64,000 nt of DNA from an uncultured Latescibacterota bacterium (GTDB lineage Bacteria > Latescibacterota > UBA2968). A program made the position numbers and the translations under genes. The notes below the pieces were generated by a model that saw only the letters and a list, made by a program, of their open reading frames with translations, had not been told where the DNA came from and searched no databases. The stretch is from NCBI GenBank assembly GCA_951812755.1, contig OX638329.1, positions 2,982,522-3,046,521 on the forward strand, written 5' to 3'. This document shows, one piece after another, positions 27,534 through 46,112 of this stretch; position 1 is the stretch's first letter; each line of letters begins with the position of its first letter.

Positions 27534-28244
27534 CTAAGATAGTGCCATTTCCAATTTGTGCTTTCGTTTTATCCAATCGGGGAGCATGCGCTCAAGTAAG
27601 TTATAAAACTCTGCCCCGTGATTGGGATGAAACAGGTGACATAACTCGTGGACGACGACGTATTCAATACATTCTCTGGGTGCTTTGATGAGTTCCAGAT
27701 TTAACGTCAGGCTGCCTTTGCTGCTCAAACTGCCCCAGCGCGTTTTCATATTGCGGATTTTGAGGATGGGTTTATTCACCCCCTTTTTTTGAAAGGGACG
27801 CCAGCATTCCTCAAACACTTTCAAAAAATAAATATTCGCCTTGCTTCGGTACCATTCTTCAAGCAACATCGCGATATGTTCAGGCTCGTTATTAACCGTT
27901 GCTATGTGAAAAAATCCCTGCTTTAGCAAGACCTTATCCGTTTCAGCCTGTCTTATCTTCAACCGATACTTTTTGCCCAGGTACAGGTGGCTTTCTCCTC
28001 CGACAAATCGCCGCTCTGGAGTTCGCGGGTCAAACTGTGCGAAATAGCGAAGCTGGCGTCTTATCCAACGCGCGCGTTTGTAAATGAGACGCTGGATGAG
28101 GTTTGTATCTGTTTCCAGTGGTGCTTTTACGGTCACTAAGCCGTTTGGATGAACGGCAATTTCGATAGATTTTCTGTTGGAATAACTCAGATGAAAGGGA
28201 ATGGATTCGCCCGCGTATGTGATGGCGTGCTGAGTTTCCGACAT
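27534..28244 (-). CDS. YgjP-like (DUF45 / M48-type) metal-dependent hydrolase
   Basis: 'VVVHELCHLFHPNHGAEF' motif; immediately after hsdR, a common arrangement. Confidence 0.75.
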   Translation of the reverse strand: MSETQHAITYAGESIPFHLSYSNRKSIEIAVHPNGLVTVKAPLETDTNLIQRLIYKRARWIRRQLRYFAQFDPRTPERRFVGGESHLYLGKKYRLKIRQAETDKVLLKQGFFHIATVNNEPEHIAMLLEEWYRSKANIYFLKVFEECWRPFQKKGVNKPILKIRNMKTRWGSLSSKGSLTLNLELIKAPRECIEYVVVHELCHLFHPNHGAEFYNLLERMLPDWIKRKHKLEMALS

Positions 28245-28249
28245 TAAGG

Positions 28250-31200
28250 CTACCTCCAGAATTTGGCAATCCTCATTGCTTGGCTGATCATTTCGTCCAT
28301 TTGTTCCGAAGATAAATCAATGCCATGTATGTCTTCCACCACATCGTAGAAGAAATCATCAATCTCGTTTTTTACGACATTTTGCGCGTCGCTATCGTTC
28401 CAAAAATCTACCTTCCAATTCCTTTCTATCGCGGTTTGAATGGCAAGCGTTGTTTTTATTGCTATGCCATCGGTCTGGCTTTCATCGATATCAATTTTTG
28501 AGAAACAGGGTTTAATTGCGCCAAAATATGCACAGGCTTCACGATTATTGCGAATCTCGTCGGGCACATCGTCGCGTTGAGAGCTTTCGACCTTATCGCG
28601 AATATCGCTCACCTTTTGCAGATAATCCAGGGCTAATATCCGTTGCTGCCTGAAATCGTCGATTGCCTCCTGAATGAGCTTTGAGAATTTCTCGTAAAAA
28701 GCAGGGTCTTTGTCCATGTTTTCGGTAATCTTGCGCTTGGTTGCATGCGCGATATGGTCGGCGTTTGCCGCTATATTTCGGGTGCGGTAGATGCCTCGCT
28801 CCTCTTTGACCACAGAAAAGGTGTTGTTATCAAAAATATCCACGGGATCGTTTAATTGGGTGACTTCGTTTGCCTGAATATGCGTGTTTAGCAACTTTTT
28901 AATTCGGGTGTCATAGTCGCCGTAATCAATGGCTTCGGCGTAGCGCAGTCTGACAGCCTGTCTCAGTTTCTCAAAACGCAAGAGATCGCTTTTGTAGCGT
29001 TTGAGTTGGGCCTCGTCGGTCTGCATAATGAACTGCTCAGATGAAAGCGCGATGGCAAGGGTTTTGCCGTATTCCGTGAGGCGTTCATAAAAATCTTCCC
29101 GCAATGCGTCATCGGATAGGAGGACTTCGTAGCGTTCTTCATCGCGGGAATTTTTAATTTCTTTGAATATATCCCAGAGGTCCGAGTAACGTTGCGGCAA
29201 TTTTTGTATTTCTTCCTGGATGGAGACCAGGACATTGGCGAGATCCGCTCTGTCAAAATCCGCAAGCGCGTCGTATTCGTTCAGTGCTTTGTCCAGTTCA
29301 CCCAATACATTGGCATAATCAACGACATAGCCAAATTCCTTATTTTCGTGTACGCGATTAACCCGGGCAATAGCCTGGAGCAATGTGTGTTCGCGCAACT
29401 TACGGCACAGATAGAGCACGGTATTGCGAGGCGCGTCAAATCCGGTGATGAGTTTATCTACTACAATCAAAATTTCCGGATCGTCCGCGTGTTTGAACTG
29501 TGCGATGATTTGTTTGTTGTATTGGTCTTCGGAACCATAACGAGCCATCATTTTGTTCCAGAACGCGTTGACCTCATCTGTTTCTTCGCCTACCTCTTCA
29601 TGCCCCTCTCGCGTATCCGGGGGAGAAATAACGACCTCCGATGAAATATCATTTATCTCATTGAAAAATTCTCGATACTTCAGGGCAGTCGCTTTGTTGG
29701 GTGCTACAAGTTGCGCCTTAAATGGGGTGTTCTGCCAGTTTACGCGGTAGTGTGTGCTTATGTCAAATGCGCGCATATAGACGACCTGGTCTGCCTGATT
29801 GAGTGCATCTGCACGGGAATATTTTCTTTTTAAGTCGGCTTTTTGTTGGTCTGTCAGGTTTACCGTATGGCGTTCGAACCACAAATCAACCGCGTTTTCG
29901 TTTTGCTCTATCTCTACATGCCGTCCTTCGTACAGTAGGGGAACCACTGCCTTGTCTTTGATCGCCTGTCGCACGGAATAGTGCGGTTCAATAAGACCTC
30001 CAAATCTAACAAAACTGTTCTTCTCTCTTTTGAGCAATGGCGTACCTGTGAAGCCGATGTAACAAGCATTGGGTAACATCTGCCTCATGCGCGCTGCGAG
30101 AGAACCGAAGTTTGTGCGGTGGCTTTCATCTACGAGGACGACAATATCCGCTGAATCATCAACGTATTTTTCAGCAGAAAGTGCCGTATCAAATTTATTG
30201 ATCAGCGTCGTGATGATACCCACTTTGTTTTTGATGTGTTTGACCAGATTTCGCCCGGTTGTCGCCCGCTCCATGTCCAGGCCACAGGCTGCGAAGGTGT
30301 TGCCCAGTTGTTTATCCAGGTCTTTGCGGTCTGTAACGAGAATCATTCGGGATTTATTCAGTTCGGAGTTCAGAGCCAGAGTACGCGCGAGCATGACCAT
30401 TGTGATGGATTTCCCAGATCCCTGAGTGTGCCAGACAATGCCGCCCTGGCGGCGTCCTGTCTTGTCTATTTGTTTGATGCGATTTATTGCGGAACGAACG
30501 AGAAAGAACTGCTGGTATCGGGCTATTTTCTTACTGCCAAGGTCAAAGACGATAAAGCCGTAAATGAGTTCCAACAGACGCTCTGGACGGCACAGGCTGT
30601 AAAGACATCTATCCTGTTCCGTGAGCAGTCGGTCTCCTGTGCTTTCAAGCGCGGCGAAGTGCGATAGCGCCAGAGCAAAATCGCCGCGGAATAGGGCGTC
30701 TTTGTCTTCAGCGGAAAGGGTTTTATTGATGCTGGCATTCACTTCGTGAGCAGAATCCTCCATTTCGTCCCATAAGCTCCAGAATGCCTTTGAAGTTCCC
30801 ACCGTTGCGTACTTCGCCTCATTTTTGTTTATAGCCAGCAATATTTGTGCGTAAATGAAAAGGCGCGGGATATATTCTTCGCCCTGATTGCGGATTGTTT
30901 GAGATATGGCCTGCTCAACATCCACATCGGAGCCTTTGCATTCGATTACAACAAGGGGAATACCGTTCACGAATAGTATAATGTCGGGCCTTGCGGTTTC
31001 CAGGCTGCGGGTGCGTTCAACAGAAAATTCCGCTGTGGCGTGAAACACATTGTTCGCGGGATTTTTCCAGTCGATATAGTTCAGGGTATAACTTTTGGAA
31101 TCGCTCTCGATGGTTTGTTCAAGTGATGTGCCAAGCGTTATCAGGTCGTAGATTACTTCATTTGTTTTTTGCAGACCATCGTATTGGATATTTTTGATTT

Positions 31201-31438
31201 TCTGAATGGCAGATTGAATATTCTCCTCGCTGAATAGATACAGACCGCCTTTGTAGTGAATGCGGTTTATTTTTTTAAGCTGATCGCGCAAGATGTTTTC
31301 CAGCAGAACATTTGAGGCACGACCACCGCGTTCTACCATCGCCTGCTCGGGGGGCAGATACCGGTAGCCCATGTTAATTAGCTGTTGCAGGGCAGGTATC
31401 TGGGAGAGGTGTTTTTCGCTGAATGGGAAGGTAGGCAT
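28250..31438 (-). CDS. hsdR: type I restriction endonuclease subunit R
   Basis: 1062 aa; helicase motifs ('HTQGSGKS', 'DESHR') and HsdR-like N-terminal nuclease region. Confidence 0.9.
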   Translation of the reverse strand: MPTFPFSEKHLSQIPALQQLINMGYRYLPPEQAMVERGGRASNVLLENILRDQLKKINRIHYKGGLYLFSEENIQSAIQKIKNIQYDGLQKTNEVIYDLITLGTSLEQTIESDSKSYTLNYIDWKNPANNVFHATAEFSVERTRSLETARPDIILFVNGIPLVVIECKGSDVDVEQAISQTIRNQGEEYIPRLFIYAQILLAINKNEAKYATVGTSKAFWSLWDEMEDSAHEVNASINKTLSAEDKDALFRGDFALALSHFAALESTGDRLLTEQDRCLYSLCRPERLLELIYGFIVFDLGSKKIARYQQFFLVRSAINRIKQIDKTGRRQGGIVWHTQGSGKSITMVMLARTLALNSELNKSRMILVTDRKDLDKQLGNTFAACGLDMERATTGRNLVKHIKNKVGIITTLINKFDTALSAEKYVDDSADIVVLVDESHRTNFGSLAARMRQMLPNACYIGFTGTPLLKREKNSFVRFGGLIEPHYSVRQAIKDKAVVPLLYEGRHVEIEQNENAVDLWFERHTVNLTDQQKADLKRKYSRADALNQADQVVYMRAFDISTHYRVNWQNTPFKAQLVAPNKATALKYREFFNEINDISSEVVISPPDTREGHEEVGEETDEVNAFWNKMMARYGSEDQYNKQIIAQFKHADDPEILIVVDKLITGFDAPRNTVLYLCRKLREHTLLQAIARVNRVHENKEFGYVVDYANVLGELDKALNEYDALADFDRADLANVLVSIQEEIQKLPQRYSDLWDIFKEIKNSRDEERYEVLLSDDALREDFYERLTEYGKTLAIALSSEQFIMQTDEAQLKRYKSDLLRFEKLRQAVRLRYAEAIDYGDYDTRIKKLLNTHIQANEVTQLNDPVDIFDNNTFSVVKEERGIYRTRNIAANADHIAHATKRKITENMDKDPAFYEKFSKLIQEAIDDFRQQRILALDYLQKVSDIRDKVESSQRDDVPDEIRNNREACAYFGAIKPCFSKIDIDESQTDGIAIKTTLAIQTAIERNWKVDFWNDSDAQNVVKNEIDDFFYDVVEDIHGIDLSSEQMDEMISQAMRIAKFWR

Positions 31439-31455
31439 TGCATTGTTCCTGTTTT

Positions 31456-31514
31456 ATCCGCAGATGAATATTATCCGCATATGAACGCAGATATTCGCAG
31501 ATAGAGGCAGATAA
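31456..31514. repeat. cluster of CGCAGAT-type motifs in the hsdR upstream region
   Basis: 'CGCAGAT' at 31459, 31486, 31496 and GGCAGAT at 31506 (10-bp spacing for the last three), CGCATAT at 31476. Confidence 0.4.
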
Positions 31515-32018
31515 AATTCTTGTGAAGCTGGAAGATTACGAGCTTATGACTCTGGTCTCTGATTCATCTCGCTTTGGCTGCATCTCCGTTTTCTTACACG
31601 ACTTCTCAATCATTATCGGTCGCTGGCCTATTGCCTTCTAATTGCTGAAAGCAATTTTTGTTGGGGTTGCATATTTAAGAATGTATGCGAGTTTTCGCAA
31701 ATTTCTGCTTTCCAACTCTTTTTTTGTAAACAGTACAAAAAATACTATAAATTCGTCACAGTCGATATATCCCGTGATTTCTTGACAAGGTAACTGATCC
31801 GAAGTCACTACTCTAATATATGTATTTCTTTTATCGGTTCTTTTAGCAATACTTCGGACAGTTTTTAGGTGTAAAGGTTCTTTGAAATCAACAGGTTAGA
31901 TGAGACCCCATGTTTTATTTACAAGTTAGCCCTATACCCTGAGTTTGATAAAAAAACTGACAATTCTATAAACCGTTGTATTATAGAAACTTAGGGTTTT
32001 TGACTAATTGGAAACCTA

Positions 32019-32129
32019 TCAAAAAGTGTCCGAACCATTGTTGGTGTTCAATCCATTTTTAAATTCCATAAATTCACCAAGCTGAACTTCCCGCCATCCC
32101 TTCGGCAACTGCCCATTTTTCACTGTCAT
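32019..32129 (-). pseudogene. orphan N-terminal fragment of an hsdS specificity-subunit gene
   Basis: 'MTVKNGQLPKGWREVQLGEFMEFKNGLN' matches the conserved HsdS N-terminus, then stop; followed by about 500 bp of AT-rich ORF-free DNA. Confidence 0.4.
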
Positions 32130-32166
32130 TCTATTATCCCCTGTTGAACTGTGCAGTACTTCTGGC

Positions 32167-32388
32167 TCACCAACTCTTTCCTTGCAGTTCCTTCGGGAAG
32201 AGCTTGCGGCTGGAGAGCCGGTCTTCATCTAAAACGTGAATAAGGTATTCGAGAGTTTTCCGCTGTTCGTCAGTATCGCCCTCATCCATCCATGACTGGA
32301 CCAACTGCACAAGACCGGCTGCACGGTCATCAGAAGTTTTGCTTTCACTGACAATCTCGGTAGGATTTTCTGAAAGCCTTTTATCCAT
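32167..32388 (-). CDS. hypothetical small acidic protein
   Basis: 73-aa ORF inside the R-M island; no recognisable motif. Confidence 0.2.
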   Translation of the reverse strand: MDKRLSENPTEIVSESKTSDDRAAGLVQLVQSWMDEGDTDEQRKTLEYLIHVLDEDRLSSRKLFPKELQGKSW

Positions 32389-32427
32389 ATCTCTGTCCTC
32401 TCATCTCATCGCTTTTGCCCTCCTGCT

Positions 32428-32775
32428 TTATGTCTTGACCGCCTGCAATTTCTCTGTTTCAGAAATCTCGCATTGTGGCGCGGGCAGTTGGGTGATGATG
32501 TTCGCAATCAGCGTCTCGTCCTTGTTTGACATGGCATTCGCCACATCTTGAGGATTGCTATGCGTCTTTCGCGCAAATTCTCGCGCACCGCCTTGTCCTT
32601 CAACAGCCGCACTGAATCCGTAATAAAGCGCGGCACCATCCGGATCTTTTTCGTGCTCTTCCAATAAGACTTCAAGGAAGGAGAGAGCTTTATCGATATC
32701 CGAAAACTTTTCGATTAAGTAGTCGCGGAAATCTATCATCTGTCTCATCGTTGGGTCTCCTTGTAATTTTGCCAA
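32428..32775 (-). CDS. addiction-module antidote protein (HTH antitoxin)
   Basis: 115 aa; 'AALYYGFSAAVEGQGGAREFARKTHSNPQDVANAMS' antidote-like; directly downstream of and overlapping the toxin gene. Confidence 0.55.
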   Translation of the reverse strand: MAKLQGDPTMRQMIDFRDYLIEKFSDIDKALSFLEVLLEEHEKDPDGAALYYGFSAAVEGQGGAREFARKTHSNPQDVANAMSNKDETLIANIITQLPAPQCEISETEKLQAVKT

Positions 32776-33080
32776 TAGGTTTTTGCGCGTTCAATGTCTC
32801 GCGTTTGGGAAGACTTATCGCCGCCGCAGAGCAACAGGACGATGGTGTTGCCGACTATACCAAAATAGATGCGATAGCCTGCTCCAAAATGGAAACGGGT
32901 TTCAAAAATACCGTCACCGACAGATTTCCAGTCGCCAAAATTGCCGCCCGCAAGACGACCAAGGCGTGCTTGAATCCGGTCCTGCGTTTTTTGATCGCGT
33001 GACTCAAACCATTCGGTGAAAGGCACTCGCCCATTTGAATGCTGGTAAATTTGCAGTTTTCTCGGTTGCGTAGCAAGCAT
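32745..33080 (-). CDS. RelE/ParE-family toxin (addiction-module killer type)
   Basis: 'FHFGAGYRIYFGIVGNTIVLLLCGGDKSSQTRDIERAK' matches the killer-protein C-terminus. Confidence 0.6.
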   Translation of the reverse strand: MLATQPRKLQIYQHSNGRVPFTEWFESRDQKTQDRIQARLGRLAGGNFGDWKSVGDGIFETRFHFGAGYRIYFGIVGNTIVLLLCGGDKSSQTRDIERAKTYWQNYKETQR

Positions 33081-33116
33081 TCTCTATCTGCCCTTTGCCT
33101 GACTCATGGTGCAATT

Positions 33117-33485
33117 TTAGGTCTCGACTGCCTGCAATTTCTCGGTCTCTGTTTCAGATGTCTCGCATTGCGTCGCGGGCAGTTGGGCGATGATGTTCGC
33201 AATCAGCGTCTCGTCTTTGTTTGACATGGCCTGCGCCACGCCTTGAGGATTGCAATGCGTCTTTCGGGCAAATTCTCGCGCACCGCCCTGTCCTTCAACA
33301 GCCGCACTGAATCCGTAATAAAGCGCGGCACTATTCCCGTCTTTTTGGTATTCTTCCAATTCCGTTTGAAGATAGGAGATGGCCTCCTCAAAGTCAGAAA
33401 GCCCTTCGATTAAGTAGTCGCGATAATTTCTCATTTCTCTCATCGTTAGGTCTCCTTGTAGTTTTACCAATAGGTTTTTGCGCAT
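33117..33485 (-). CDS. addiction-module antidote protein, second paralog (orphan)
   Basis: 122 aa, near-identical core to 32428..32775. Confidence 0.55.
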   Translation of the reverse strand: MRKNLLVKLQGDLTMREMRNYRDYLIEGLSDFEEAISYLQTELEEYQKDGNSAALYYGFSAAVEGQGGAREFARKTHCNPQGVAQAMSNKDETLIANIIAQLPATQCETSETETEKLQAVET

Positions 33486-33551
33486 TCAATGTCCCGTGCC
33501 TGCGAAGATTTGTCGCCGCCGCAGAGCAGGAGGACGATTGTGGCATCTGTA
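33486..33551 (-). pseudogene. 3' remnant of a duplicated RelE/ParE-like toxin gene
   Basis: Encodes only '...TIVLLLCGGDKSSQARDIECAKTYW*'; 5' part replaced by repeat copy B. Confidence 0.45.
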
Positions 33552-33568
33552 AATATCTTTTGATTTAG

Positions 33569-33630
33569 CCTTTCATCTGCGTCTATCTGCGAAAAACGCT
33601 CAAATTATTCGCGTTTTTTTCTGCGGATTC
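33569..33630. repeat. dispersed intergenic repeat, copy B (inverted relative to copy A)
   Basis: Reverse complement nearly identical to 12563-12625; supplies the last codons and stop of the RhuM-like gene. Confidence 0.6.
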
Positions 33631-34658
33631 CGACCCAATTGTCGTTCCAATTCTTTAGTTTCTCTATCAAAATCAGATTCAAACAAACGATCCTGAACAA
33701 TTCGGTATTTCTCAAACTCGCTTTCGGCATGGGCTTTGGCAATCTCGGCACTGACTTGTCCGCTGTCTTTCAATATCTGCCGGTCAAAAGCCTCGAGAAA
33801 TATATCGAGGCGTTTTGCCCAGTCCTCCATTGTCATGGGTATCTTGCGCTGTGCCCGGTCTTCGGCGAGGTCAATATAGGCGTTGACGATACGCCCAAGA
33901 GATTCCAGTTCTTCTTTCGACAGGTAGTTCTTTGCGACAGAGACATCAGACTTCAGGATTTTGCCGGTTGGGGCTTTCTCCCAGGTGGCAAGCCCCATGT
34001 GCCGCTGACCGCTATCTGCCCGCTGTTGTATAAATTCCGCCGTAGTATGGCCGTGAATAGCATAATGCAGTTTGTTTTGCACTCTGGCGAAAAACTCGCG
34101 GGTGGTCGGCGCGTCCCTGTTATAATCCATGCTGGTGGTGTAAATGTCGGCGATCTTTTGGTAAAACCGCCGTTCGCTCAGACGAATCTCGCGGATTTCT
34201 TCCAGCAACCGCTCAAAATAGTCCTCGCCGAGAAACGCGCCATTTTCCAACCGCTGCTTATCCAGAACATAGCCTTTGATCGCAAACTCCCGTAAAACCC
34301 GGGTTGCCCATTGGCGAAATTGCGTGGCGCGTCTGGAGTTTACCCGATAACCGACCGAGATGATGGCGTCCAGATTGTAAAAATTGGTAGTGTAGTTTTT
34401 GCCATCAGCGGCAGTATGTGCAAAACTTGCACATACTGAATCCTGGTCTAACTCGTTGTCATTAAAGATATTTTGCAAGTGCTTTGTAATAACTGAGCGA
34501 TCCACGGAAAATAACTCCGCCATGAGTTTTTGTGTCAGCCAAATGGTGTCGTCCTGGTAACGCACTTCAATACTATCTTCACTGGCCTGGTTGGTAAAGA
34601 TCAAAAATTCCGCTGTGCTGCTGCGGATAGTCAGATCTTTTGAGGATCTCTTGCTCAT
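33600..34658 (-). CDS. RhuM-family (Fic/DOC-related) protein
   Basis: 352 aa; 'DAIISVGYRVNSRRATQFRQWATRVL' is characteristic of RhuM; 4-bp overlap with hsdM. Confidence 0.65.
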   Translation of the reverse strand: MSKRSSKDLTIRSSTAEFLIFTNQASEDSIEVRYQDDTIWLTQKLMAELFSVDRSVITKHLQNIFNDNELDQDSVCASFAHTAADGKNYTTNFYNLDAIISVGYRVNSRRATQFRQWATRVLREFAIKGYVLDKQRLENGAFLGEDYFERLLEEIREIRLSERRFYQKIADIYTTSMDYNRDAPTTREFFARVQNKLHYAIHGHTTAEFIQQRADSGQRHMGLATWEKAPTGKILKSDVSVAKNYLSKEELESLGRIVNAYIDLAEDRAQRKIPMTMEDWAKRLDIFLEAFDRQILKDSGQVSAEIAKAHAESEFEKYRIVQDRLFESDFDRETKELERQLGRNPQKKTRII

Positions 34659-36169
34659 GCTCGTTTTACTCCCTCCATTAATCTCCCTATCTCTCCCCGT
34701 ACTACGATTAACTCCTCTTCCAGTCGGTCTATCTCAAGCTGCACTGCATCAATATCAATCTCCTCTTCTTCTTCAAAGGTATCTACATAGCGAGGAATGT
34801 TTAAATTGAAGTCGTTTTCTTCAATTTCTTCAAAGGTGGCGAGGTGGGCGTATTTGTCTATATCCTGGCGTTTTTTATAAGCGGTGGTGATTTTTTCAAT
34901 GTGCTCGTCCAGCAATGCATTTTGATTTTTCCCGGCCTGATATTCGCGGCTTGCATCAATGAACAAGACATCTTTGCGGTTCTCATTTGCTCCCCCTTGT
35001 TCTCGCGAGCGGTCAAAGACCAAGATGGCGACTGGTATTGAGGTCGTGGGGAACAGATTGCCCGGCAAGCCAATGACGACGTCGAGCAAGTTTTCTTCAA
35101 TGAGTTGCTGGCGAATGCGTCCTTCGGCACCACCCCGGAACAAAACACCGTGAGGGACCACAACAGAAACCCGGCCTTGTTTTTCCAAAGCCGCTTCCAC
35201 CATGTGGCTGATAAACGCATAGTCGCCTTTGGATTTGGGAGGCAAACTGCGCCAGAAGCGGTTGTATATGTCTGCCTCGGCGTCTTCCGCGCCCCACTTG
35301 TTAAGTGAAAACGGGGGATTGGCGACTACATTGTCGAATTTCATCAACCGATCGGATTCCACCAGTGCCGGGGCAGTGAGCGTGTTGCACCATTCAATGC
35401 GGGCTGCATCGGCACCGTTTAGAAACATATTCATACGCGCCAATGCCCAGGTGCTGCCGTTCACTTCCATTCCGTAAAGGGCGTGGTTTTTGTCGCCCAC
35501 TACGCGCGCGGCTTCAATGAGAAGACCAGCGGAACCGCAGGCGGGATCACAGATACGGGCGCCGGGTTTGGGCGCGCACAGTTTTGCCACCAGTTCGGAT
35601 ACCTTGTGTGGCGTGTAGAACTCGCCGGCTTTTTTGCCCGCGTCAGATGCGAAGCGTTCAATCAGGTAGATGTAGGTGTTGCCGATCACATCTTCCGAAA
35701 CCCGTCTGGGACTCATATTCAATTCGGGTTTGTTGAAATCTTCCAGCAGTGTTTTTAGACGGCGGTTGCGGTCTCTGGTCCTGCCGAGACTTGTCTCGCT
35801 GTTGAAATCTATATTTCGGAAAACACCTTCCAATTTCTGTTTGTTTTCCGTTTCAACCGCCTCCAGTGCGATGTTGATGAGTTCACCGATATTGGGAGCA
35901 GAGCGCTGTTCATAAAGGTTGTAAAAACTACTGCCATCCGGCAATACAAAACGCTCATTCCTCAGCCTGCGCCTGATGCGTTCATCGTTATCGCCGTATC
36001 GTTTTTTATATTCCTCGTAGTGGTCCTTCCAGACATCGGAAATGTATTTTAGAAACAGCATTACGAGGATGTAGTCCTTATATCCGGCTGCATCCATCAC
36101 GCCGCGAAAGGTGTCGCAGGCAGCCCAGGCAGCGTTGTTGATGTCTTTTTGTTGGATTTGACTGTTCAT
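34655..36169 (-). CDS. hsdM: type I restriction-modification DNA methyltransferase subunit M
   Basis: 504 aa; 'ICDPACGSAGLLIEA' SAM-binding motif and 'NPPF' catalytic motif. Confidence 0.9.
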   Translation of the reverse strand: MNSQIQQKDINNAAWAACDTFRGVMDAAGYKDYILVMLFLKYISDVWKDHYEEYKKRYGDNDERIRRRLRNERFVLPDGSSFYNLYEQRSAPNIGELINIALEAVETENKQKLEGVFRNIDFNSETSLGRTRDRNRRLKTLLEDFNKPELNMSPRRVSEDVIGNTYIYLIERFASDAGKKAGEFYTPHKVSELVAKLCAPKPGARICDPACGSAGLLIEAARVVGDKNHALYGMEVNGSTWALARMNMFLNGADAARIEWCNTLTAPALVESDRLMKFDNVVANPPFSLNKWGAEDAEADIYNRFWRSLPPKSKGDYAFISHMVEAALEKQGRVSVVVPHGVLFRGGAEGRIRQQLIEENLLDVVIGLPGNLFPTTSIPVAILVFDRSREQGGANENRKDVLFIDASREYQAGKNQNALLDEHIEKITTAYKKRQDIDKYAHLATFEEIEENDFNLNIPRYVDTFEEEEEIDIDAVQLEIDRLEEELIVVRGEIGRLMEGVKRA

Positions 36170-36186
36170 ATTTTGTTACTCCATTA

Positions 36187-36492
36187 TTAACGATCACCAC
36201 AGGGTGGATTATATCGATTCCGCAGTTCTGTCTCGATAATAGTACGGTCATCTGAATTACAGTAATAAGCCGCGTAACTCTGATAGGGATAACCTACCGA
36301 TTTCCAACAGTATTTCCGTTCATGATTTTCTACGCGTTTCTTCACATCCTCCGATTCACCTATATCAACAGGCGTCCAGAGTTGATGTATCGTGCGCCGC
36401 CCTAAAATGGCATACACTCCGGATTCATTTCTAAGATCGGATGTATCATCAAGAGGACCTTCAAAGCTGTAACGTCCTATTCCAATAGTCAT
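36187..36492 (-). CDS. small GIY-YIG-like nuclease-domain protein, tentative
   Basis: 'GVYAILG...VDIGESEDVKKRVENHER...E...N' fits GIY/YIG/R/E/N spacing; start set to internal Met 36492. Confidence 0.35.
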   Translation of the reverse strand: MTIGIGRYSFEGPLDDTSDLRNESGVYAILGRRTIHQLWTPVDIGESEDVKKRVENHERKYCWKSVGYPYQSYAAYYCNSDDRTIIETELRNRYNPPCGDR

Positions 36493-36688
36493 GTCAATAA
36501 CTCCTATTTTATAGGGGTGATTTAAGGATGCGAATAAAGAGTAGAAATCATGGCACAATGACAAACAAAACCTTTCTGGATTGCGGCTAAAAACGTGCCG
36601 CAATGACAGGTGCTATTCCCATCGTCACGCCTGCATGCCTTAAGCAGGCGTCCAGAATAGGGAAGGTGCTCTGAACTCTTTAATGGCA

Positions 36689-37270
36689 TTAAGGTTTTTC
36701 AGATTCATTTAACAATCGCATCTGAATTGTTTTGACCAGTTTTTCCTTTTGCTCTGCCAAATTTTTCATCAGCCTTTGTTCCTTATTTAACAAATCGGCA
36801 AGGGCGACGATTTGTTCTTGTATTTCCAGATTGGGGAGAGGGATTTCCAGAGCATCAAGAGCGGATTTGCCTATCATGGTCATTATCGTTCCGGTCGCCC
36901 TGCTGTGTAAAAATGCTTGTGATGAGGATAGGTTGATACACCAACAAAGATATTCCGGTAGAACATTTTTGCTTGTGACGCGGATCAAGAATAGCGGGGC
37001 CGAGACAACCGTCCGTCCGGGTTCCTTATCAATGATTGTCGCCGTAGTAGTTTTGCCTCGGGAGCGGAAAACCAAATCTTTGCATTCGACCAGATGGCGC
37101 TCATTGATGCCGTTTATATTAATGGTCATTAGGTTGCCATAATCCAATTTATCTTCGATTAGATCGCGCATCTGAATGACAGCCACATTCCCATCTGCTT
37201 CCGGCTCAATACGGGAACGAAAGGAGAGGCCCATCTGAACAAGAGCGATGTCTTTGAGCTTGTATTTCAT
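36689..37270 (-). CDS. hsdS: type I R-M specificity subunit S, short single-TRD form
   Basis: C-terminal 'LPNLEIQEQIVALADLLNKEQRLMKNLAEQKEKL' is the conserved HsdS coiled-coil; about 193 aa from ATG 37270. Confidence 0.75.
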   Translation of the reverse strand: MKYKLKDIALVQMGLSFRSRIEPEADGNVAVIQMRDLIEDKLDYGNLMTININGINERHLVECKDLVFRSRGKTTTATIIDKEPGRTVVSAPLFLIRVTSKNVLPEYLCWCINLSSSQAFLHSRATGTIMTMIGKSALDALEIPLPNLEIQEQIVALADLLNKEQRLMKNLAEQKEKLVKTIQMRLLNESEKP

Positions 37271-37414
37271 AATTACTGGTAAAATATAAAAGTTGCCAGT
37301 TGTGGGAGAAATTATATTACAGAAAAGCCTTTCCTGCAATATAAAGAAAAAAATTCCACTCTGTCAAGTGAAAGTCTTCATTTAGCCGCGAATTGGCGTC
37401 CTGTTCAGATCCCT

Positions 37415-37547
37415 CGCCTTCATCTGCGTCTATCTGCGTTCAGGCTCAAATGAACTGCTGTCACAGTTGTAAACAGCTCACTCGCCTTCATTCTGTGGAC
37501 CCTTTGGGTTTTGCCTTTCATCTGCGCCCATCTGCGAAAAACGCTCA
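37415..37547. repeat. degenerate CGCAGAT-motif repeats plus left half of repeat copy C
   Basis: 'CATCTGCGTCTATCTGCG' at 37421-37438 and 'CATCTGCGCCCATCTGCGAAAAACGCTCA' at 37519-37547. Confidence 0.5.
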
Positions 37548-37735
37548 GAGACTGTTTTAAAACTCATTTTGCCCCTTCTCAGCTATGCGCTATTGCACTG
37601 TCATTCTGAGCGGAGCGCAGCGGAGTCGAAGAATCTCTTGCCAACTCAGGTGGAAAAGATGCTTCGGCTACGCTCAGCATGACAAAACGCCGAACATCCG
37701 TAGCATCAGGTATTAATTTTAAAACAGCTTCTCAG
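37548..37735. mobile_element. MITE-like insertion (~185 bp) splitting repeat copy C
   Basis: Imperfect terminal inverted repeats GAGACTGTTTTAAAA / TTTTAAAACAGCTTCTC; flanking CTCAGA on both sides; internal palindrome GTCATTCTGAGCG / CGCTCAGCATGAC. Confidence 0.35.
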
Positions 37736-37760
37736 ATTATTCGCGTTTTTTTCTGCGGAT
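37734..37760. repeat. right half of repeat copy C
   Basis: 'CAGATTATTCGCGTTTTTTTCTGCGGAT' contributes '...IRRKKRE*' and the stop of the sulfatase gene. Confidence 0.5.
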
Positions 37761-39449
37761 CAGCATCACGCGCCGCACATCCATTACCTGTGAATTGGAT
37801 ACGTCAAGGGCGCGCAAGGTCAGGGTTCCTCTACCCGCGTTTAGCTGGATTGTTCCCAGTGTCAATGGCTCGAAATCCTTTACATAAGACTCGCCTCCAC
37901 GCGGATAGCGGTCATCCGCTGCGCCGATTTGTGGTGGGTCGTGTGCGTCGGTTACCTGTCCTTGCACTTTTGTTGCTTGACCTTGCGCGGGGTGAAATGC
38001 CAACTCGACGGTTGATCCCACATCTTCTTCTGGGCAGGTATAATAAACCGCCGCTTCATAATCGCCCGTTGTGCCGACCTCAATATCCCAGGTCATCCGA
38101 TCACCAACTTGTGTCCAGTGCGTAAAATAAGAACAGTTGGGCGCGCCGGCACTGCGCTGGACTGTGCCGTGATGCACCCCGTCTCGTGCGGGCAAGCGAG
38201 TCGTTTTCCAGTAGCCTGTGGCAAAGGGACGGTCGTCGTTGACGGGCAAGACTTCGGCGTGGAATTTTGCTGTTGCATCTGATAATTCCGCATGGACATC
38301 AGGGTATTCTTGCGATACATCTGTTGTCTGTCCACCATCGGCGCCCATATCGTATAACTTGCCCTCTATGTCCAATCGGAATCGCTGATTGCGCGCGCTC
38401 AATTGCGCCCGCTGATGTGACAAGATGATGCGGTCAGACCATTCGACATCTTCGCCCAATAGCAGGGGTTTGAGGCTGCGACCATCCAGCGGCTTTTCAA
38501 CTTTCAGGTCGATATCCGCAAGGTCGGCAAATGTGGGCAATAAATCAATCGCTCCGGCGATTTCTTCAATGACTGTACCAGCCTGGATATGCCCTTTCCA
38601 GCGCATCAAGCCCGCCACGCGCACGCCGCCTTCATCTGTTGATCCTTTTGTGCCTTTCATCCCGCCATTCCAGCGCGCGCCATTGGGACCATTATCTCCA
38701 AAATAAAATACAATGGTATCTTCCGCGATTTCCAACTCATCGAGTTTGTCCAGCAATCGCCCCACGTTCCAATCGATATTTTCGCATAGAGCCAGTGCCG
38801 CCCGCGTGCGTTCTATCTCTTCTTGATTGGGGTTGGTCGCCAGCATCTCAATCGGTTTATCGCGGAATGGATCGTAAAATCGGTCGGGCACCTGAAATGG
38901 GGTGTGCGGGATATTGTAGGGAAGATAACAGAAGAACGGTTGATCCCGTTCGACATTTGCCGCCATAAAATCCATGGCGCGATCTGTACACTCATCGGGT
39001 AAGTATCCCTTTCCTCGCGTGAGTTCGCCATTGTGTTCGAGTTCGGCATCGAAATATTGCCCCCAGTGTCCGGAACAGAACCCAAAAAACTCGTCAAATC
39101 CCCGCGCGTTCGGATGATAGGGATGCTGCGTGCCATTGTGCCACTTGCCATAAGCTCCCGTGGCGTATCCGGCGGCTTTGAACACATCGGCAATGGTTGT
39201 TTCATCGAGGTTCAGTCGTTCGGCGCCGGTGCTTACGCCGTGGACACCGCCGCGCAGATGATAGCGACCCGTCAAAAACTCTGCCCGCGTGGGCGCGCAT
39301 ACCGGGCAGACGTAAAACCGGTCGAATAGGGCGCCATCTCGTGCGAGAGAATCCACATTGGGTGTGTTGAGATTTGTATTGCCGTGTACACTCAAATCGC
39401 CCCAACCCTGATCGTCGGTCAAGATCACGAGAATATTTGGTCTGGTCAT
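37737..39449 (-). CDS. sulfatase
   Basis: '[15 protein letters not shown]' formylglycine motif; 'LTDDQGWGD' N-terminus; ~150-aa C-terminal extension. Confidence 0.85.
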
Positions 39450-40795
39450 TGGGTCTCCTTTTTTAAGGCGTCATATTCCGGATTCACACACTGATCTCCC
39501 CGCTGTTCCAGCACCAACCGCAAGCCGATTTCGGGTTCGGGATATTGGCCCTGGTCATCGGTCTGTGCAATCCACTGTGTTAGAATATCGCGGTGGTATT
39601 GCAAGGCTTCGGCATGGTCTGGGTCATCTACGAGGTTGTTCACCTCATCGGGGTCGGCGTCACAATCGTAAAATTCTTCTGCGATGCGTTCTTCTGCCCA
39701 GAAAAATGCCTGCTCGGGCGTCAGTTCGCCGTTGGCGTTCATGGTTCGCAGCAGTTCCATATAATCCGATCCATCGCGGTACTGTGCCTGCATAAAGGGA
39801 CGATCGGTCATAAAGTTGCGCACATAGCGATACCGCTGGGTACGCACCGTGCGCATGCGATCTATTGTGAAATCACAGCGGTCTTTTGCGGCAATTACAT
39901 AGTCGCGTTCGACAAAATGTTCGCCAAACAGATTTTGGCCTTCCATGTAATCGGGTACACCGAGGCCAGCGAGCGCGAGTGAGGTGGGACCGATGTCAAT
40001 GCCGCTGACGAGGTCGGAGCGCACGTTTCCGGGTGTTACGATATCTGTATTGCCCTGCCAGGAAATCATCAATGGGATTTTGTGCCCGCCTTCGTAAATA
40101 AATTGCTTGTGCCGCGGCAACCGCATCCCGTGATCGCTAAATAAAAATATAATCGTATTTTCGCGCAATCCATCTTCTTTCAGTCGCTCCAAAATCCATC
40201 CCACCTGTCGGTCTGTGTGCGAGATACAATCGTAGTGCAGGGCAATTTCTCTGCGGATGATTTCGTGGTCGGGATAGAACGATGGCACGGGTACCGAGGC
40301 GGGATCGATGCCCGGACCTTTGAGCAATCCAATGCTTTTGCCACCTCGAAGCTGAATTTGTCCGAAGAACGGTTGGTCAGGGGGACATCCGGACCAATCG
40401 CTTCCATCTTTTGCCCCTTTGAAATCCATGCTCCCATGGTGGTTAAATAAAACATCTAAATCAAAGACAAAATTGTAATGCGTTTTGCCCTCGTTAAATG
40501 TGTAATATCCGGCGTCTCGAAAATACTCGGGTATTGTTTTTATCCCTTCGGGTAAAATGGGGTATGAACTGTTGTGGTTGTGCGCGCCTATGGTGGTTTG
40601 ATACATCCCGGTAATCGTTGCCGAGCGCGAAGGCGAGCACACGCCAGAGGTTTGATATGCCCGATCAAATTTTACGCCCGAAGCAGCGAGCGCGTCTATA
40701 TTGGGCGTTTGTATGGTCTGGTCGCCGTAACAACTCATCCACGGGTTCATATCTTCGAGAAAAAGCCAGAGAACATTCGGACGGGGGTTCGACAT
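39446..40795 (-). CDS. sulfatase
   Basis: '[11 protein letters not shown]' motif; 4-bp overlap with the downstream sulfatase. Confidence 0.85.
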
Positions 40796-40813
40796 TTTTT
40801 ACTCCTTTCAGTT

Positions 40814-41776
40814 TTACTCAGTTCGATAATTGAGCTTGAGCCATTCTGGTGGGCCGTATAGCAGTGGTTTTTCGTTCCAGGTAAATAGCGGTTCTATGTC
40901 TCGCAAAATATCGTCGAGGGCTTCGTGATCGTACGCATCTTGAGTTGGGAAACGGGTTGTCAAGCGGCTGTGCGCGCTCTTGATTACCTGGCGGCGGCGC
41001 AGTATTTCGGGATAATTGGTGCCTTTTAATGTTTCGAGCGCGAATAGGGGAGCCATGATGCCATATACCCGTTTTGCCTCTTTCAAATCTCCAGCTTCCA
41101 GGGCATTCCACAGGCGCACCACGACATCTGTTATGTGACAGCCGGGCATTTGTCCGGCCACGCCGCGCGGATGTTCGAGCAGTAAATAGCGGCCACTGGC
41201 GCCACCAAATACGCCCTTCAATTTTGGCCCGGCCTGTTCGATTAAGCCCGTAGCCATGTGCGTTGGAGGGAAGACCTCTTCCTTGACGTATTCTATGTGT
41301 TCTACTTCATTGATCAAGCGCACCACTGTGTCGATTGATAGCTCGCTACCCCGCGTGTGATTTTGTATAAAAATTGGCATATCCACTTCGCGGTCTATTG
41401 CTTGATAATAGTGTACCATCGCATCTTCGTCTTCAATTGGCTCTATATAAGGGGCCATTGCTATGACGCCATCGGCTTCCAGTGCTTGCGCGTGGCGCGC
41501 GAACATCGTCGCGTGGTTACTACTCGCCCCCTGAACGCCGAGAATGACGGGAATGCGTCCGGCGGTGTGTTCTACGACCATCTGCATCCCGTGCATGCGT
41601 TCCCGGTCGGTCAATACGGGAAAACTACTGGCATTTACGGGCCAGACAATTCCGTGCGCGCCACAGGTGATACAAAAATCCAGCACGCGTTTGAGGTCGC
41701 CCCAATCGACATCTCCATTTTGCTTAAAAGGCGTTGAGGGAATGGTGAATACCCCGCGAAATGTATCAGAACTCAT
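40814..41776 (-). CDS. dihydrodipicolinate synthase / N-acetylneuraminate lyase family protein
   Basis: TIM-barrel DapA-like; start ATG 41776 with AGGAGA RBS; upstream extension rejected (terminator inside). Confidence 0.75.
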   Translation of the reverse strand: MSSDTFRGVFTIPSTPFKQNGDVDWGDLKRVLDFCITCGAHGIVWPVNASSFPVLTDRERMHGMQMVVEHTAGRIPVILGVQGASSNHATMFARHAQALEADGVIAMAPYIEPIEDEDAMVHYYQAIDREVDMPIFIQNHTRGSELSIDTVVRLINEVEHIEYVKEEVFPPTHMATGLIEQAGPKLKGVFGGASGRYLLLEHPRGVAGQMPGCHITDVVVRLWNALEAGDLKEAKRVYGIMAPLFALETLKGTNYPEILRRRQVIKSAHSRLTTRFPTQDAYDHEALDDILRDIEPLFTWNEKPLLYGPPEWLKLNYRTE

Positions 41777-41852
41777 GTTGTCTCCTTTTTTAAACACTAT
41801 TGCAGAACAATATGCAGAAATAGAAAATAAGTTATGAAATTTTATCTCCAAA

Positions 41853-41889
41853 CAAAAAATCCCGCCATTGCTTTGTACAAGAGCGGGAT
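41853..41889 (-). terminator. rho-independent terminator after the AAA+ gene
   Basis: On the minus strand, stem ATCCCGC/GCGGGAT followed by TTTTTTG. Confidence 0.4.
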
Positions 41890-41909
41890 ATCATTCCAAT
41901 TTCTCAACT

Positions 41910-41935
41910 GTTTCTATCCGATGTTTCTATCCGAT
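41910..41935. repeat. tandem duplication GTTTCTATCCGAT x2 spanning the AAA+ gene stop
   Basis: Two exact 13-bp copies at 41910-41922 and 41923-41935. Confidence 0.5.
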
Positions 41936-42790
41936 CAACTCGGGCAAATGCGCGGGCAGCAACTCATCGCCGTCACAGTTCACGACGGCCTCATCGATCA
42001 CTCGGCAGAGTTCGGCGGCATTCCTCGGCCAATGATACGCGCCCAACTTTTCCAAAACCCCATTGGAAATCCTCGGAACACTTCGACCATCTCGCTCCGC
42101 ACGTCCTTCAGCGAAATATTGCGCCAGAACGGGGATATCCTCTTTCTGATCTCTCAGCGTATGTGTTTCAACCACGCATACTCGGAGTTGATCGTATAAA
42201 TCTGCGCGAAATCTTCCGGCTTTCACTTCTTTGCTCAAGTCCCGATTTGTAGCCACCATGATGCGAACATCTGCATACACAGGCTGTACCCCGTTCACGC
42301 GGGTATAATAGCCATCGGTCAAATAACTGTGCAAACGATATTGCGTTTCTGGTGCCATGATATTTACCGCATCCAAAAACACCGTACCACCCTGCGCCAG
42401 TTCCAGCAAGCCGCGCTTGGCAATGCCCAAAAACCCGCCATCTTCTACTCCGAAAATCTCTGCTTCATTGTGTTCAACAGATATTTCACAAAAATGTTCT
42501 AAAAACGGATGGTCTGCACGCCGGCTAAATGAATGAATGCTTTTTGCTGTATATGCTTTCCCTGTGCCGGTTTCTCCATAGATAAGCACGGGGGAGGCTG
42601 TACGCGCGACTTCCCGAACCCGCGCTCGCAACTGTTTGGCAGCCTCGCTCTCTCCCACAATCTCCATCTTCGGAATATGCCCACCCACTGTTCTTTGAGG
42701 CGCGAGTGCATCCAGCATGGCCTCGGCTTCTTCGACGTTTACTTTGTCTTCCTGTAACATCGTCAACACCTTGCGTCTATTTGCAGACAT
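41927..42790 (-). CDS. sigma-54-interaction-domain AAA+ ATPase lacking a C-terminal DNA-binding domain
   Basis: Walker A 'GETGTGKAY', Walker B 'GTVFLDAV'; GAFTGA position reads 'GGFLGIAKRG'; ends after the AAA+ lid; AGGAGG RBS. Confidence 0.65.
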   Translation of the reverse strand: MSANRRKVLTMLQEDKVNVEEAEAMLDALAPQRTVGGHIPKMEIVGESEAAKQLRARVREVARTASPVLIYGETGTGKAYTAKSIHSFSRRADHPFLEHFCEISVEHNEAEIFGVEDGGFLGIAKRGLLELAQGGTVFLDAVNIMAPETQYRLHSYLTDGYYTRVNGVQPVYADVRIMVATNRDLSKEVKAGRFRADLYDQLRVCVVETHTLRDQKEDIPVLAQYFAEGRAERDGRSVPRISNGVLEKLGAYHWPRNAAELCRVIDEAVVNCDGDELLPAHLPELIG

Positions 42791-42886
42791 ACGAACCTCC
42801 TGTTAAAGACTTAAAAGCAACCACCGATGAACACAGAGGAAAAGGCGAATAGGCAACGATCAGTTTTCAGTAGTCAGCATACTGTC

Positions 42887-43246
42887 CTATAATCCCCGCA
42901 ACTGTGCAATCGCCTCCTGGGGGCTTAATTCGCCGCAATCTACGGCATCCAAAATTGTTCGCTGATTCAGGCGTTTCTCCACGGCGGGATACCCGAGGGC
43001 CTGCACGACCTCTTCCAGTCGCTTGCGCACAGTGGGATACGAAATCTTCAGTTCTTTTTCCATTTCTTTGATATTGCCTCGGGCGAGCAAAAATGCCTCA
43101 ATAAACTGTTGATGTGCATCCGTTAGCAGTGCCAAACGCGATACGGGCAATTCGCCCTCCACGACAATGTGACAGGATGAACACCGCAGCTTAACAGGCT
43201 CCATCGTGCCATTGCACACTGGACAATGGGGTATTGAACGTCTCAT
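42887..43246 (-). CDS. DUF2089-like zinc-ribbon/HTH protein, tentative
   Basis: 'CPVCNGTM...CSSCH' zinc ribbon then a helical HTH-like region; AGGAGG RBS; start set to internal Met 43246. Confidence 0.45.
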   Translation of the reverse strand: MRRSIPHCPVCNGTMEPVKLRCSSCHIVVEGELPVSRLALLTDAHQQFIEAFLLARGNIKEMEKELKISYPTVRKRLEEVVQALGYPAVEKRLNQRTILDAVDCGELSPQEAIAQLRGL

Positions 43247-43406
43247 AATACCTCCTTTCAATATGTTATTTTAAAAAATATGACTAATAAATTCAAATAT
43301 GTCAATAATAAAAATAACTATATATGCAAAAATGTTATTATAATTTAAAATATCGTATATTTATGTTTCAAAAATTAAGTGCAAATCCCGTCTCGTTGGA
43401 CAATAT

Positions 43407-43477
43407 TGGGCGTAAATTATGGTTGTTTATTCCAAAATTTGGCGTAAATTATGGAATTAAAGTCCATATTTTACGCC
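43407..43477. promoter_or_regulatory. three copies of a 14-bp motif GGCGTAAATTATGG (two direct, one inverted), candidate regulator site
   Basis: Copies at 43409-43422, 43441-43454 and inverted CCATATTTTACGCC at 43464-43477, in the divergent region before the ATPase gene. Confidence 0.4.
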
Positions 43478-43492
43478 GAAAGAGGTGGTCAT

Positions 43493-44746
43493 GTGAAAAA
43501 TAGAACCCTATTTTCTTTTATAAAACAAAAATCCGCCTCCAGATTGGGGCGGCTCATTGCTTTGACAGGTGCGCGACAAACGGGCAAGACCACACTGGTA
43601 CAAACGGGATTTTCCGACTATTCATACATTTCTCTCGATGATCCGATCACTCGTCCGGATTTTACAGCACTTTCGGCTGCACAGTGGTATCAACAGTATC
43701 CAAATGTCATTCTGGACGAAGTGCAAAAAGCACCTGCGATTATAGAGTCTATCAAAGCCGTTTACGATCAGTATCCCGATGCTCGCAGTATCTTACTCGG
43801 TTCCAGCCAAATCTTGTTAATGGAACAGATCCGCGAAAGTTTGGCCGGGCGTATCTCCCTTATTGAACTGTATCCTCTCACATTGCCGGAAATGCTGACA
43901 GATTCCTGGGATGACACCATTGTGGATTCCAGATTTATCCATTTTCTTAAAACAGGTGAACGCGATATTTTGTATTCGGGTATGCCACTCCAGAGCGAAC
44001 GCTATGCACAAGTGGCACATCACCTGGCACATTATATGAATTTTGGTGCTATGCCAGCCGTCGTTGATCCCTTGCTTACCATCCCTGATAAATACGATTG
44101 GTTGCACGACTATATCCAAACCTATCTTCAGTGCGACTTGCGCGATCTCGCCAATTTGCGCGATCTCACTCCGTTTGCTCGCATGCAACGCGCATTGGCG
44201 GGGCTGACTGGCGTATTGCTCAATATGAATGAATTGGCTCAACTTACCGGCGTCACATCCAAGACTGTCAAACGCTTTATCTCATATCTCGAAATAAGCT
44301 ACCAGGTCATATTGTTACAACCGTGGTTTCGCAATCTGAACAAACGTCTGTCCAAAGCGCCAAAAGTTCATTTTCTCGATCCTGGCATCCAGCGTGCGTT
44401 ACTCAATCGACGCGGTCAACCCACAGGCCATGAATTTGAAAGTGCTATTATTGCTGAAATTTACAAACAAATTCAAAATAGCCGGTTGCCCATTGATTGT
44501 TATCATCTGCGCACGGCAGATGGACGCGAAGTCGATTTGCTGCTCGAAACTGAACGGGGCTTTGTGCCTATCGAAATAAAAATGGCGGAACGCATTTCTT
44601 TTACAGACGCCCGCCATTTGCGCAAACTCGACGAAATTTTAGACAAACCCATTCTGCAGGGACTGGTGCTCTCCAATGACCCTCGCATTCACGATCTGGG
44701 CAATGACATTGTGGCACTACCTGTGGGTTGGGCACTTGGCGCGTAA
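43493..44746 (+). CDS. AAA-type ATPase with DUF4143-like C-terminal domain
   Basis: Walker A 'GARQTGKTTL'; start set to GTG 43493 because the motif array covers ATG 43451. Confidence 0.65.
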   Translation: MKNRTLFSFIKQKSASRLGRLIALTGARQTGKTTLVQTGFSDYSYISLDDPITRPDFTALSAAQWYQQYPNVILDEVQKAPAIIESIKAVYDQYPDARSILLGSSQILLMEQIRESLAGRISLIELYPLTLPEMLTDSWDDTIVDSRFIHFLKTGERDILYSGMPLQSERYAQVAHHLAHYMNFGAMPAVVDPLLTIPDKYDWLHDYIQTYLQCDLRDLANLRDLTPFARMQRALAGLTGVLLNMNELAQLTGVTSKTVKRFISYLEISYQVILLQPWFRNLNKRLSKAPKVHFLDPGIQRALLNRRGQPTGHEFESAIIAEIYKQIQNSRLPIDCYHLRTADGREVDLLLETERGFVPIEIKMAERISFTDARHLRKLDEILDKPILQGLVLSNDPRIHDLGNDIVALPVGWALGA

Positions 44747-44795
44747 TGAACGCAACCCAAAAGCCCCCCGGTGATGTACTCAACGAGGGGCTTTT

Positions 44796-46094: not shown

Positions 46095-46112
46095 AGTTTA
46101 TCCTCTGATTCG

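Follow-up and report, generated by a model that had tools for sequence, protein, structure and literature searches.

A 184-bp MITE family of Latescibacteria and the cross-phylum hairpin in its core

What is the short non-coding sequence that splits one copy of a small repeat in a Latescibacteria genome, and does it belong to a mobile family? The 64-kb window, that is, the whole stretch of DNA that was analysed, holds three full copies of this host repeat, and one of them, copy A, had been predicted to carry an insertion of about 185 bp (37548-37735) exactly where copy B is contiguous. Copy A is indeed split at this point, and copies B and C both run through it uninterrupted, which makes them two paralogous empty sites. 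The insert itself is real; its right end moves to 37731 when related copies are aligned, leaving 184 bp. Very probably it is a copy of a MITE family specific to Latescibacteria, with 16-bp terminal inverted repeats (TIRs) and a TNA duplication, mobilised in trans by an IS1031-like transposase, chimeric in build and carried here as a neutral passenger. The element and the repeat that it entered are laid out as follows:

37548-37731, plus strand: MITE proper, 184 bp, non-coding; bounds from the alignment of 20 full-length copies with unrelated flanks
37548-37563, plus strand: left TIR (GAGACTGTTTTAAAAC), conserved in all copies
37716-37731, minus strand: right TIR (reverse complement GAAGCTGTTTTAAAAT), matching the left TIR at 13 of 16 positions
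37545-37547, no strand: left target-site duplication TCA (TNA type); same triplet at both ends in 19 of 20 copies
37732-37734, no strand: right target-site duplication TCA, from the comparison of copies
37502-37547, plus strand: host repeat copy A, left part, 89% identical to copy B at 33557-33602
37735-37760, plus strand: host repeat copy A, right part, which supplies the last eight codons and the stop of a sulfatase ORF (minus strand)
33557-33628, plus strand: host repeat copy B, paralogous empty site, reading ...GCGAAAAACGCTCA|AATTATTCGCGTTTTTTTCTGCGGAT unbroken
about 12563-12620, minus strand (opposite orientation): host repeat copy C, second paralogous empty site, in ordinary intergenic DNA

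Ends, duplication and relatives of the element

The ends of the element and its duplication are set where the alignment and systematic extraction of 20 copies place them. A repeat finder marks inverted arms at 37544-37567 and 37712-37735 (24 nt, 79%), with a perfect 11-nt core, CTGTTTTAAAA/TTTTAAAACAG, at most 5 nt from both junctions; the repeats are imperfect, as had been noted from the sequence, and they are conserved in all 20 full-length copies. A duplication of CTCAGA at both junctions had also been proposed. There is a duplication at both junctions, but the comparison of copies reduces it from 6 bp to the 3-bp TCA: the apparent CTCAGA is composed of TCA, the last C and the first GA of the element, which mirror the preferred target, and target bases that match by coincidence. 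Excision of the MITE together with one TCA restores ACGCTCAGATTATTCGCG, with one mismatch to copies B and C. The duplication is read here as 3 bp, which is the conventional reading; because T and A are invariant in the triplet, a 1-bp duplication with element ends A...T, which gives the same sequence, is formally possible.

The absence of coding capacity was borne out as well. The longest ORF inside the insert has 43 aa, and its translation has no relative, and shares no common words, among 5.8 billion proteins. Rfam gave nothing relevant for the window or the region, either at the gathering score or at E <= 10.

Does the element exist elsewhere? Matches to a blastn query consisting of the insert plus 50 bp of flank on each side cover the whole insert and break off at its two ends, and none includes the window flanks. 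A scan of species-representative genomes with the left repeat core and the start of the hairpin found 38 loci. Latescibacteria account for 19 of these (14 in chromosome OX638317.1, 4 in OZ242195.1 and 1 in a third Latescibacterota MAG), and four further copies lie on metagenome contigs. Alignment and systematic extraction yielded 20 distinct full-length copies, the single one in the window and 19 others, from Latescibacteria MAGs and one metagenome; their flanks are mutually unrelated. Sixteen copies measure 181-184 bp, two 219 bp and two 231 bp. Among the other 15 short copies, identity to that of the window lies at 91.8-97.3% in all except one outlier, L025, which has 65%. Every copy starts (G/A)A(G/A)(A/G)CTGTTTTAAAAC, and 17 of 20 end in TTTTAAAACAGCTTC, the remaining three (L025, L038 and L053) differing by one or two bases just before the final CTTC. 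The longer variants (L044 and L038 at 219 bp, L031 and L066 at 231 bp) carry an extra 35-47 bp with a small stem of its own inside the hairpin, and represent either an older form or the record of a further nested insertion.

Directly outside each end lies a triplet T-N-A, and the two triplets are identical in 19 of the 20 copies. The middle base varies from copy to copy (A in 12, T in 5, C in 2 and G in 1), and with the observed base frequencies 19 or more of 20 copies would agree by chance with a probability of about 3e-6. The consensus target is palindromic, YYC|TNA|GRR; position -1 is C in 17 and position +1 is G in 12 of 21 entries, a count in which L034 was entered on both strands. Far from being unique, then, the insert shares its pattern of ends and duplications with 19 other full-length copies, and the original prediction of a MITE-like, non-autonomous element agrees with 20 dispersed full-length copies that carry TIRs and, in 19 cases, a matching TNA.

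Prokaryotic MITEs are defined as elements of 50-500 bp with TIRs, direct repeats and a folded core, intergenic and mobilised in trans (PMC10969869). The size of the present element (184 bp in the window, with the 219- and 231-bp variants besides), its TIRs, its duplication, its lack of coding capacity and its dispersed copies are the defining features of a MITE, and all are observed. A literature search returned no paper that joins Latescibacter* with MITEs, and this is a previously unreported repeat family, described by its consensus ends, its TNA target and a length of about 184 bp.

All 17 copies that were examined in genome loci, that of the window and 16 in Latescibacteria MAGs, are intergenic. 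In several (L026, L016, L031 and L023) a stop codon serves as the TNA, and others (L051, L041, L034 and L038) adjoin a ribosome-binding site and start codon (TAAGGAG...). A preference for C-TNA-G, combined with selection against insertion into genes, would yield such sites. The copies lie in both orientations relative to their neighbour genes; the bias among them (about 10 sense to 4-5 antisense) is too weak to claim.

Outside Latescibacteria, the search for both TIRs together gave no match in viral contigs, and phage and plasmid collections held no MITE, only arm-length matches on unannotated Hymenobacter plasmid DNA. The scan loci in other phyla were considered as distant relatives of the MITE and rejected: they have the hairpin without the right TIR, or lie in coding DNA, and their CTGTTTTAAAA is coincidental.

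Likely mobiliser and known systems

Which transposase could move such a family? In ISfinder the IS1031 group has ends 'GAG' and a 3-bp repeat. This group of the IS5 family shows a TNA preference and exclusively a 3-bp direct repeat (PMC12016507), and the inverted repeats of its member ISLrh begin GAACCTGT (PMC12016507). Because the MITE has a 3-bp TNA duplication and ends that start GA..CTGT, a mobiliser of the IS1031 type is proposed. The resemblance of its ends, GAAGCTGT and GAGACTGT, to those of ISLrh is short and concerns a single reference inverted repeat, and the probable assignment to IS5/IS1031 is thus drawn from the target signature and this short end similarity rather than from a transposase. 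An IS1031-like DDE transposase of the IS5 family would be supplied in trans, would bind the terminal repeats and would cut C|TNA|G targets with a stagger of 3 nt, the repair of which would leave the TNA duplication.

A full-length relative that encodes such an enzyme had been suggested as something to look for. About 260 kb of Latescibacteria DNA, together with the metagenome and viral-contig scans, contained no transposase-bearing element with the MITE ends, and the fetched loci had no TIR pairs 0.8-3.5 kb apart. Two truncated copies, L018 and L045, have metabolic or AAA genes beside them and no transposase. The metagenome scan with the left end recovered only the four MITE copies and chance matches, and the 16-mer TIR gave only chance matches in viral contigs.

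Several known systems resemble the family in part. It shares with the IS1031 group (for example ISLrh and IS1031) the TNA preference and the 3-bp repeat, and may share inverted repeats of about 16-17 bp beginning GA..CTGT (PMC12016507), but measures 184 bp against about 850-1050 bp, has no transposase ORFs and contains an interior hairpin module unrelated to any IS. Tourist-like MITEs and mPIF are likewise short, with TIRs, a 3-bp T-N/W-A duplication and an extended palindromic target, but they are eukaryotic and show no sequence similarity, and their middle base is W where it is free here. PIF-Harbinger transposases are the eukaryotic relatives of IS5 and mobilise Tourist-like MITEs; Zhang et al. 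in 2001 reportedly gave the PIF target as CWCTTAGWG. Correia, RUP, MITEAba12 and QMITE2 are comparable in size (50-500 bp), TIRs, direct repeats, folded core, intergenic position and mobilisation in trans (PMC10969869), and differ in host phylum, in inverted repeats and in the length of the duplication.

The hairpin core and its relatives in other phyla

The internal palindrome that had been noted in the insert (37599-37616 and 37667-37684; 18 nt, 89%, by the repeat finder) is part of an internal hairpin:

37599-37684, plus strand: internal hairpin, from the repeat finder and folding
37599-37637, plus strand: hairpin 5' arm TGTCATTCTGAGCGGAGCGCAGCGGAGTCGAAGAATCTC, an exact match over 38-39 nt to IMG/VR contigs L005, L012 and L013
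37657-37684, plus strand: shortened hairpin 3' arm AGATGCTTCGGCTACGCTCAGCATGACA
37598-37717, plus strand: segment akin to stand-alone Latescibacteria hairpin elements, comprising the hairpin and the right outer arm ACATCCGTAGCATCAGGTATTAA

Palindromic elements of about 170 bp stand alone at L041:6800-6990 and L016:1290-1420, with outer inverted repeats TTAGTAACTGATGTTACGCAT. In blastn comparisons the segment 37598-37717 reaches 82% identity with both, along 131 nt of L041:6838-6968 and along 100 nt of L016:1299-1398; neither the 50 bp at the left of the MITE nor its final 15 bp occur in these elements. As homology is confined to 37598-37717, the MITE is taken to be chimeric, a resident hairpin element joined to IS-type ends: the ends and the left 50 bp, unique to the MITE, would presumably derive from an IS, and the central 120 bp would come from the resident palindromic element. 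The stand-alone elements are the likely donor of the core, and may themselves constitute a second non-autonomous family.

The hairpin reaches well beyond Latescibacteria. Its 5' arm (TGTCATTCTGAGCGGAGCGCAGCGGAGTCGAAGAATCT) is exact over 38-39 nt in unrelated IMG/VR contigs, and arms of the form GTCATYCTGAG...GAAGAATC, with their complement, occur as hairpins between genes in many phyla as well as in one phage. The phage is a genuine one (L005, IMG/VR), with terminase, P22-like coat protein and endolysin genes; between 712 and 12729 it has eight hairpins in intergenic gaps, and an arm of one of them equals the MITE core over 38 nt. In the scan of species representatives the hairpin was found without the MITE ends in Campylobacteraceae, Acidobacteria, Hymenobacter, Uhrbacteria, Saccharibacteria, Brocadiia, Kapabacteria, Ignavibacteria and Clostridia.

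At L017 the arms enclose a gene for a 96-aa GIY-YIG protein (PF01541, E = 4e-17), a layout repeated in L033 and L010. Sampling was then based on the protein, through GIY-YIG homologues at 62-76% identity from Desulfurobacterium, a Melainabacteria-like lineage, groundwater contigs, Spirochaetota, Helicobacter didelphidarum and another metagenome, and in all cases the arms lie within about 100 bp on both sides. In total the arms enclose or flank stand-alone GIY-YIG genes of about 96 aa in 9 of 9 independent loci from different phyla (L017:2165-2730, L010:10730-11229, L033:4881-5531, L081:~940-1340, L071, L073, L099, L100 and L101), all nine proteins being relatives of one query. In 8 of the 9 the GIY-YIG start codon is preceded, at a distance of 25-45 nt, by the 5' arm in sense orientation, and in L081 the variable middles of both arms are complementary. 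Hairpins with the same arms and no ORF are far commoner than those that enclose a GIY-YIG gene. The sample is small and its proteins are all relatives of one query, so the link between hairpin and GIY-YIG gene is a lead and not a result.

Tandem units of the arm in the same orientation (GTCATCCTGAGCG every 20-35 bp) occur beside a GIY-YIG gene at L071:1342-1900 (Desulfurobacterium) and at L003:3634-3780 (a viral contig), and suggest that the arms can also expand as direct repeats. Rfam, applied to eight hairpin or GIY-YIG loci, reported only a tRNA, and a search of viral contigs for loci related to the GIY-YIG protein gave nothing. Literature searches with the arm sequences as strings gave unrelated primers only, and those for GIY-YIG with hairpin or MITE gave nothing on point. 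The hairpin-flanked genes are of the minimal, stand-alone Slx1-like GIY-YIG type (PF01541; PMC1564403); unlike these loci, the window MITE carries no such gene. The survey of the superfamily by Dunin-Horkawicz et al. (2006) regards such minimal Slx1-like genes as repair-type nucleases passed on vertically, and says nothing of hairpins at their sides (PMC1564403).

Could the palindrome of the MITE be a captured copy of an undescribed class of palindromic elements, pan-bacterial and phage-borne? This is a tentative suggestion, which we put somewhat below an even chance. Its arms enclose small, stand-alone Slx1-like GIY-YIG genes in Campylobacterota, Aquificota, Spirochaetota, Saccharibacteria, groundwater and Melainabacteria-like contigs and a viral contig. 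If the suggestion is true, hairpins lacking an ORF would be miniature derivatives of a selfish element driven by GIY-YIG, or DNA or RNA structures on which the nuclease acts, and the window would show a DDE-type MITE with such a module as its passenger.

Could the hairpin, rather than the 184 bp, be the real mobile unit? It would then be REP/REPIN-like or associated with GIY-YIG, and spread by a nuclease acting on it, with the outer TIRs merely extending the palindrome. The arms are certainly multi-copy and widespread, given the eight intergenic hairpins of the phage contig and those in many phyla; outer inverted repeats specific to the lineage surround the hairpin in other lineages too, and the arms flank GIY-YIG genes at all nine loci. 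In Latescibacteria, however, what recurs in unrelated flanks is all of the 184 bp, GAGACTG...CAGCTTC included, the matching TNA of 19 in 20 copies is the signature of a DDE transposase, and the stand-alone hairpin elements of the same genomes have other ends and no TNA triplet, all of which makes this reading unlikely. The likeness to REP/REPIN concerns the internal hairpin only, as an imperfect palindrome of about 90-120 nt that is multi-copy and intergenic. REPINs are lineage-specific, tied to RAYT (HUH) genes and without duplication, whereas the arms here are cross-phylum and tied to GIY-YIG genes; the MITE itself falls outside REP/REPIN by its duplication and by hairpin arms that many phyla have in common.

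Selection for a function offers another account, in which the insert is a structured RNA gene or a cis-regulatory element (small RNA, terminator or mRNA stabiliser) and its copies are paralogous functional loci. Folded as RNA, the minus strand beats shuffled sequences (z = -3.2), many copies lie between co-directional genes beside stop codons or ribosome-binding sites, and co-option of MITEs in these ways is known (PMC10969869). The fold of the plus strand is nevertheless not significant (z = -1.65), no Rfam family or terminator-like site was found at the element, and copies occur in both orientations relative to neighbour genes. A function would also leave the TIRs and duplications unexplained, and would add to the MITE nature of the element, not replace it; as a substitute for a MITE it is very unlikely.

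The host repeat, the restriction-modification island and the meaning of the insertion

That the 184 bp are ancestral and were deleted from copies B and C, or were spread by recombination or segmental duplication, is scarcely credible and already contradicted: the window alone, where the three copies are otherwise similar, does not separate insertion into A from deletion in B and C, but the 19 other full-length copies have no trace of the host repeat in their flanks, about 197 kb of related Latescibacteria DNA contain neither the repeat nor its heptad motif, and a matching TNA in 19 of 20 copies is unexpected from deletion or segmental duplication. Insertion is preferred over deletion because copies B and C are contiguous and the orthologous locus in a genome of about 92% nucleotide identity (L014) is without the insert.

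The host repeat is a discrete element of 55-72 bp that begins ATCCGCAGAAAAAAACGCGAATAAT and closes in CGCAGAT heptads at 10-bp spacing. Besides its three full copies there is an extra run of four heptads at 31460-31515, just upstream of hsdR, and the heptad motif has 7 matches against 0.19 expected. The repeat is a candidate protein-binding site, small mobile element or weak bidirectional terminator. Copy B can also be given as ...CATCTGCGTCTATCTGCGAAAAACGCTCA on the left side up to the junction, followed by AATTATTCGCGTTTTTTTCTGCGGAT, and the MITE landed in the loop of a small palindrome of the repeat, AAAAACGC/GCGTTTTT. It had been proposed that the repeat family is itself a target for mobile DNA. 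This single insertion is all that speaks for the proposal, and there is no sign of preference; the MITE generally enters intergenic DNA at C-TNA-G sites, one of which the host repeat happened to contain.

The minus-strand genes around the insertion are listed here by falling coordinate, and from hsdS onwards they form a type I restriction-modification island:

39446-40795, minus strand: second sulfatase
37737-39449, minus strand: sulfatase (PF00884, E = 3e-59), 95% identical to P0001 on a 5.56-Mb contig; stop codon 5 bp from the right end of the MITE
36689-37339, minus strand: hsdS
34655-36169, minus strand: hsdM
33600-34658, minus strand: rhuM
32428-33485, minus strand: two toxin-antitoxin-like cassettes
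28250-31438, minus strand: hsdR
27534-28244, minus strand: YgjP-like peptidase

The intergenic region of the MITE sits between the sulfatase at 37737-39449 and hsdS, and the hsdS-hsdM-rhuM operon has its promoter-like site about 180 bp downstream of the element. This site, at 37367-37338 on the minus strand and outside the MITE, is a strong, near-consensus sigma-70-type promoter for hsdS (TTGACA-18-TATATT, 11/12). No terminator-like site was found at the MITE, nor evidence that it affects the sulfatase or hsdS, and the window copy is most likely a neutral passenger. At another copy, L053, a neighbouring gene of 570 aa was considered as the sulfatase; it is not the sulfatase.

The related genome in which P0001 lies, L014, is collinear with the window at about 92% nucleotide identity over 20575-27533 and 37760-47075. 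Between these blocks, 10.2 kb of the window (27534-37760) replaces 1.6 kb in L014 (11690-13287), and the orthologous locus has neither the insert nor repeat A. In L014 the sulfatase closes with ...VMLTLKE*, and decayed pieces of rhuM come next; the sulfatase of the window ends ...VML|IRRKKRE*, its last eight codons coming from repeat A (37737-37760, minus strand). Homology to L014 stops exactly at 37760, the repeat boundary, so the repeat or the bordering island replaced the native sulfatase end ...TLKE*. Host repeat DNA also ends rhuM, in another frame (...NPQKKTRII*, 33600-33628, minus strand), and in this way serves two unrelated genes. The island fills, with its 10.2 kb, a variable slot between the sulfatase and PhyH genes, which in L014 is occupied instead by decayed rhuM fragments and an AAA_14/DUF4143 ATPase. 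Between hsdR and rhuM a Gp49/HigB-like toxin-antitoxin cassette is duplicated in tandem (32451-32750 and 33146-33445; 695-bp spacing, 84% identity), and the toxin ORF of the second cassette appears truncated.

For the window itself the insertion has little importance, being a typical MITE that lies between genes next to a type I restriction-modification island. The family should be of use in annotating Latescibacteria MAGs, in avoiding spurious calls of small ORFs and as a strain marker. The insertion holds modest interest, and it is the cross-phylum link between hairpin and GIY-YIG gene that deserves follow-up. If that link reflects mobility, a gene family now held to consist of housekeeping repair nucleases would turn out to be one of selfish elements, and a very common source of spurious 'hypothetical proteins' would be explained.
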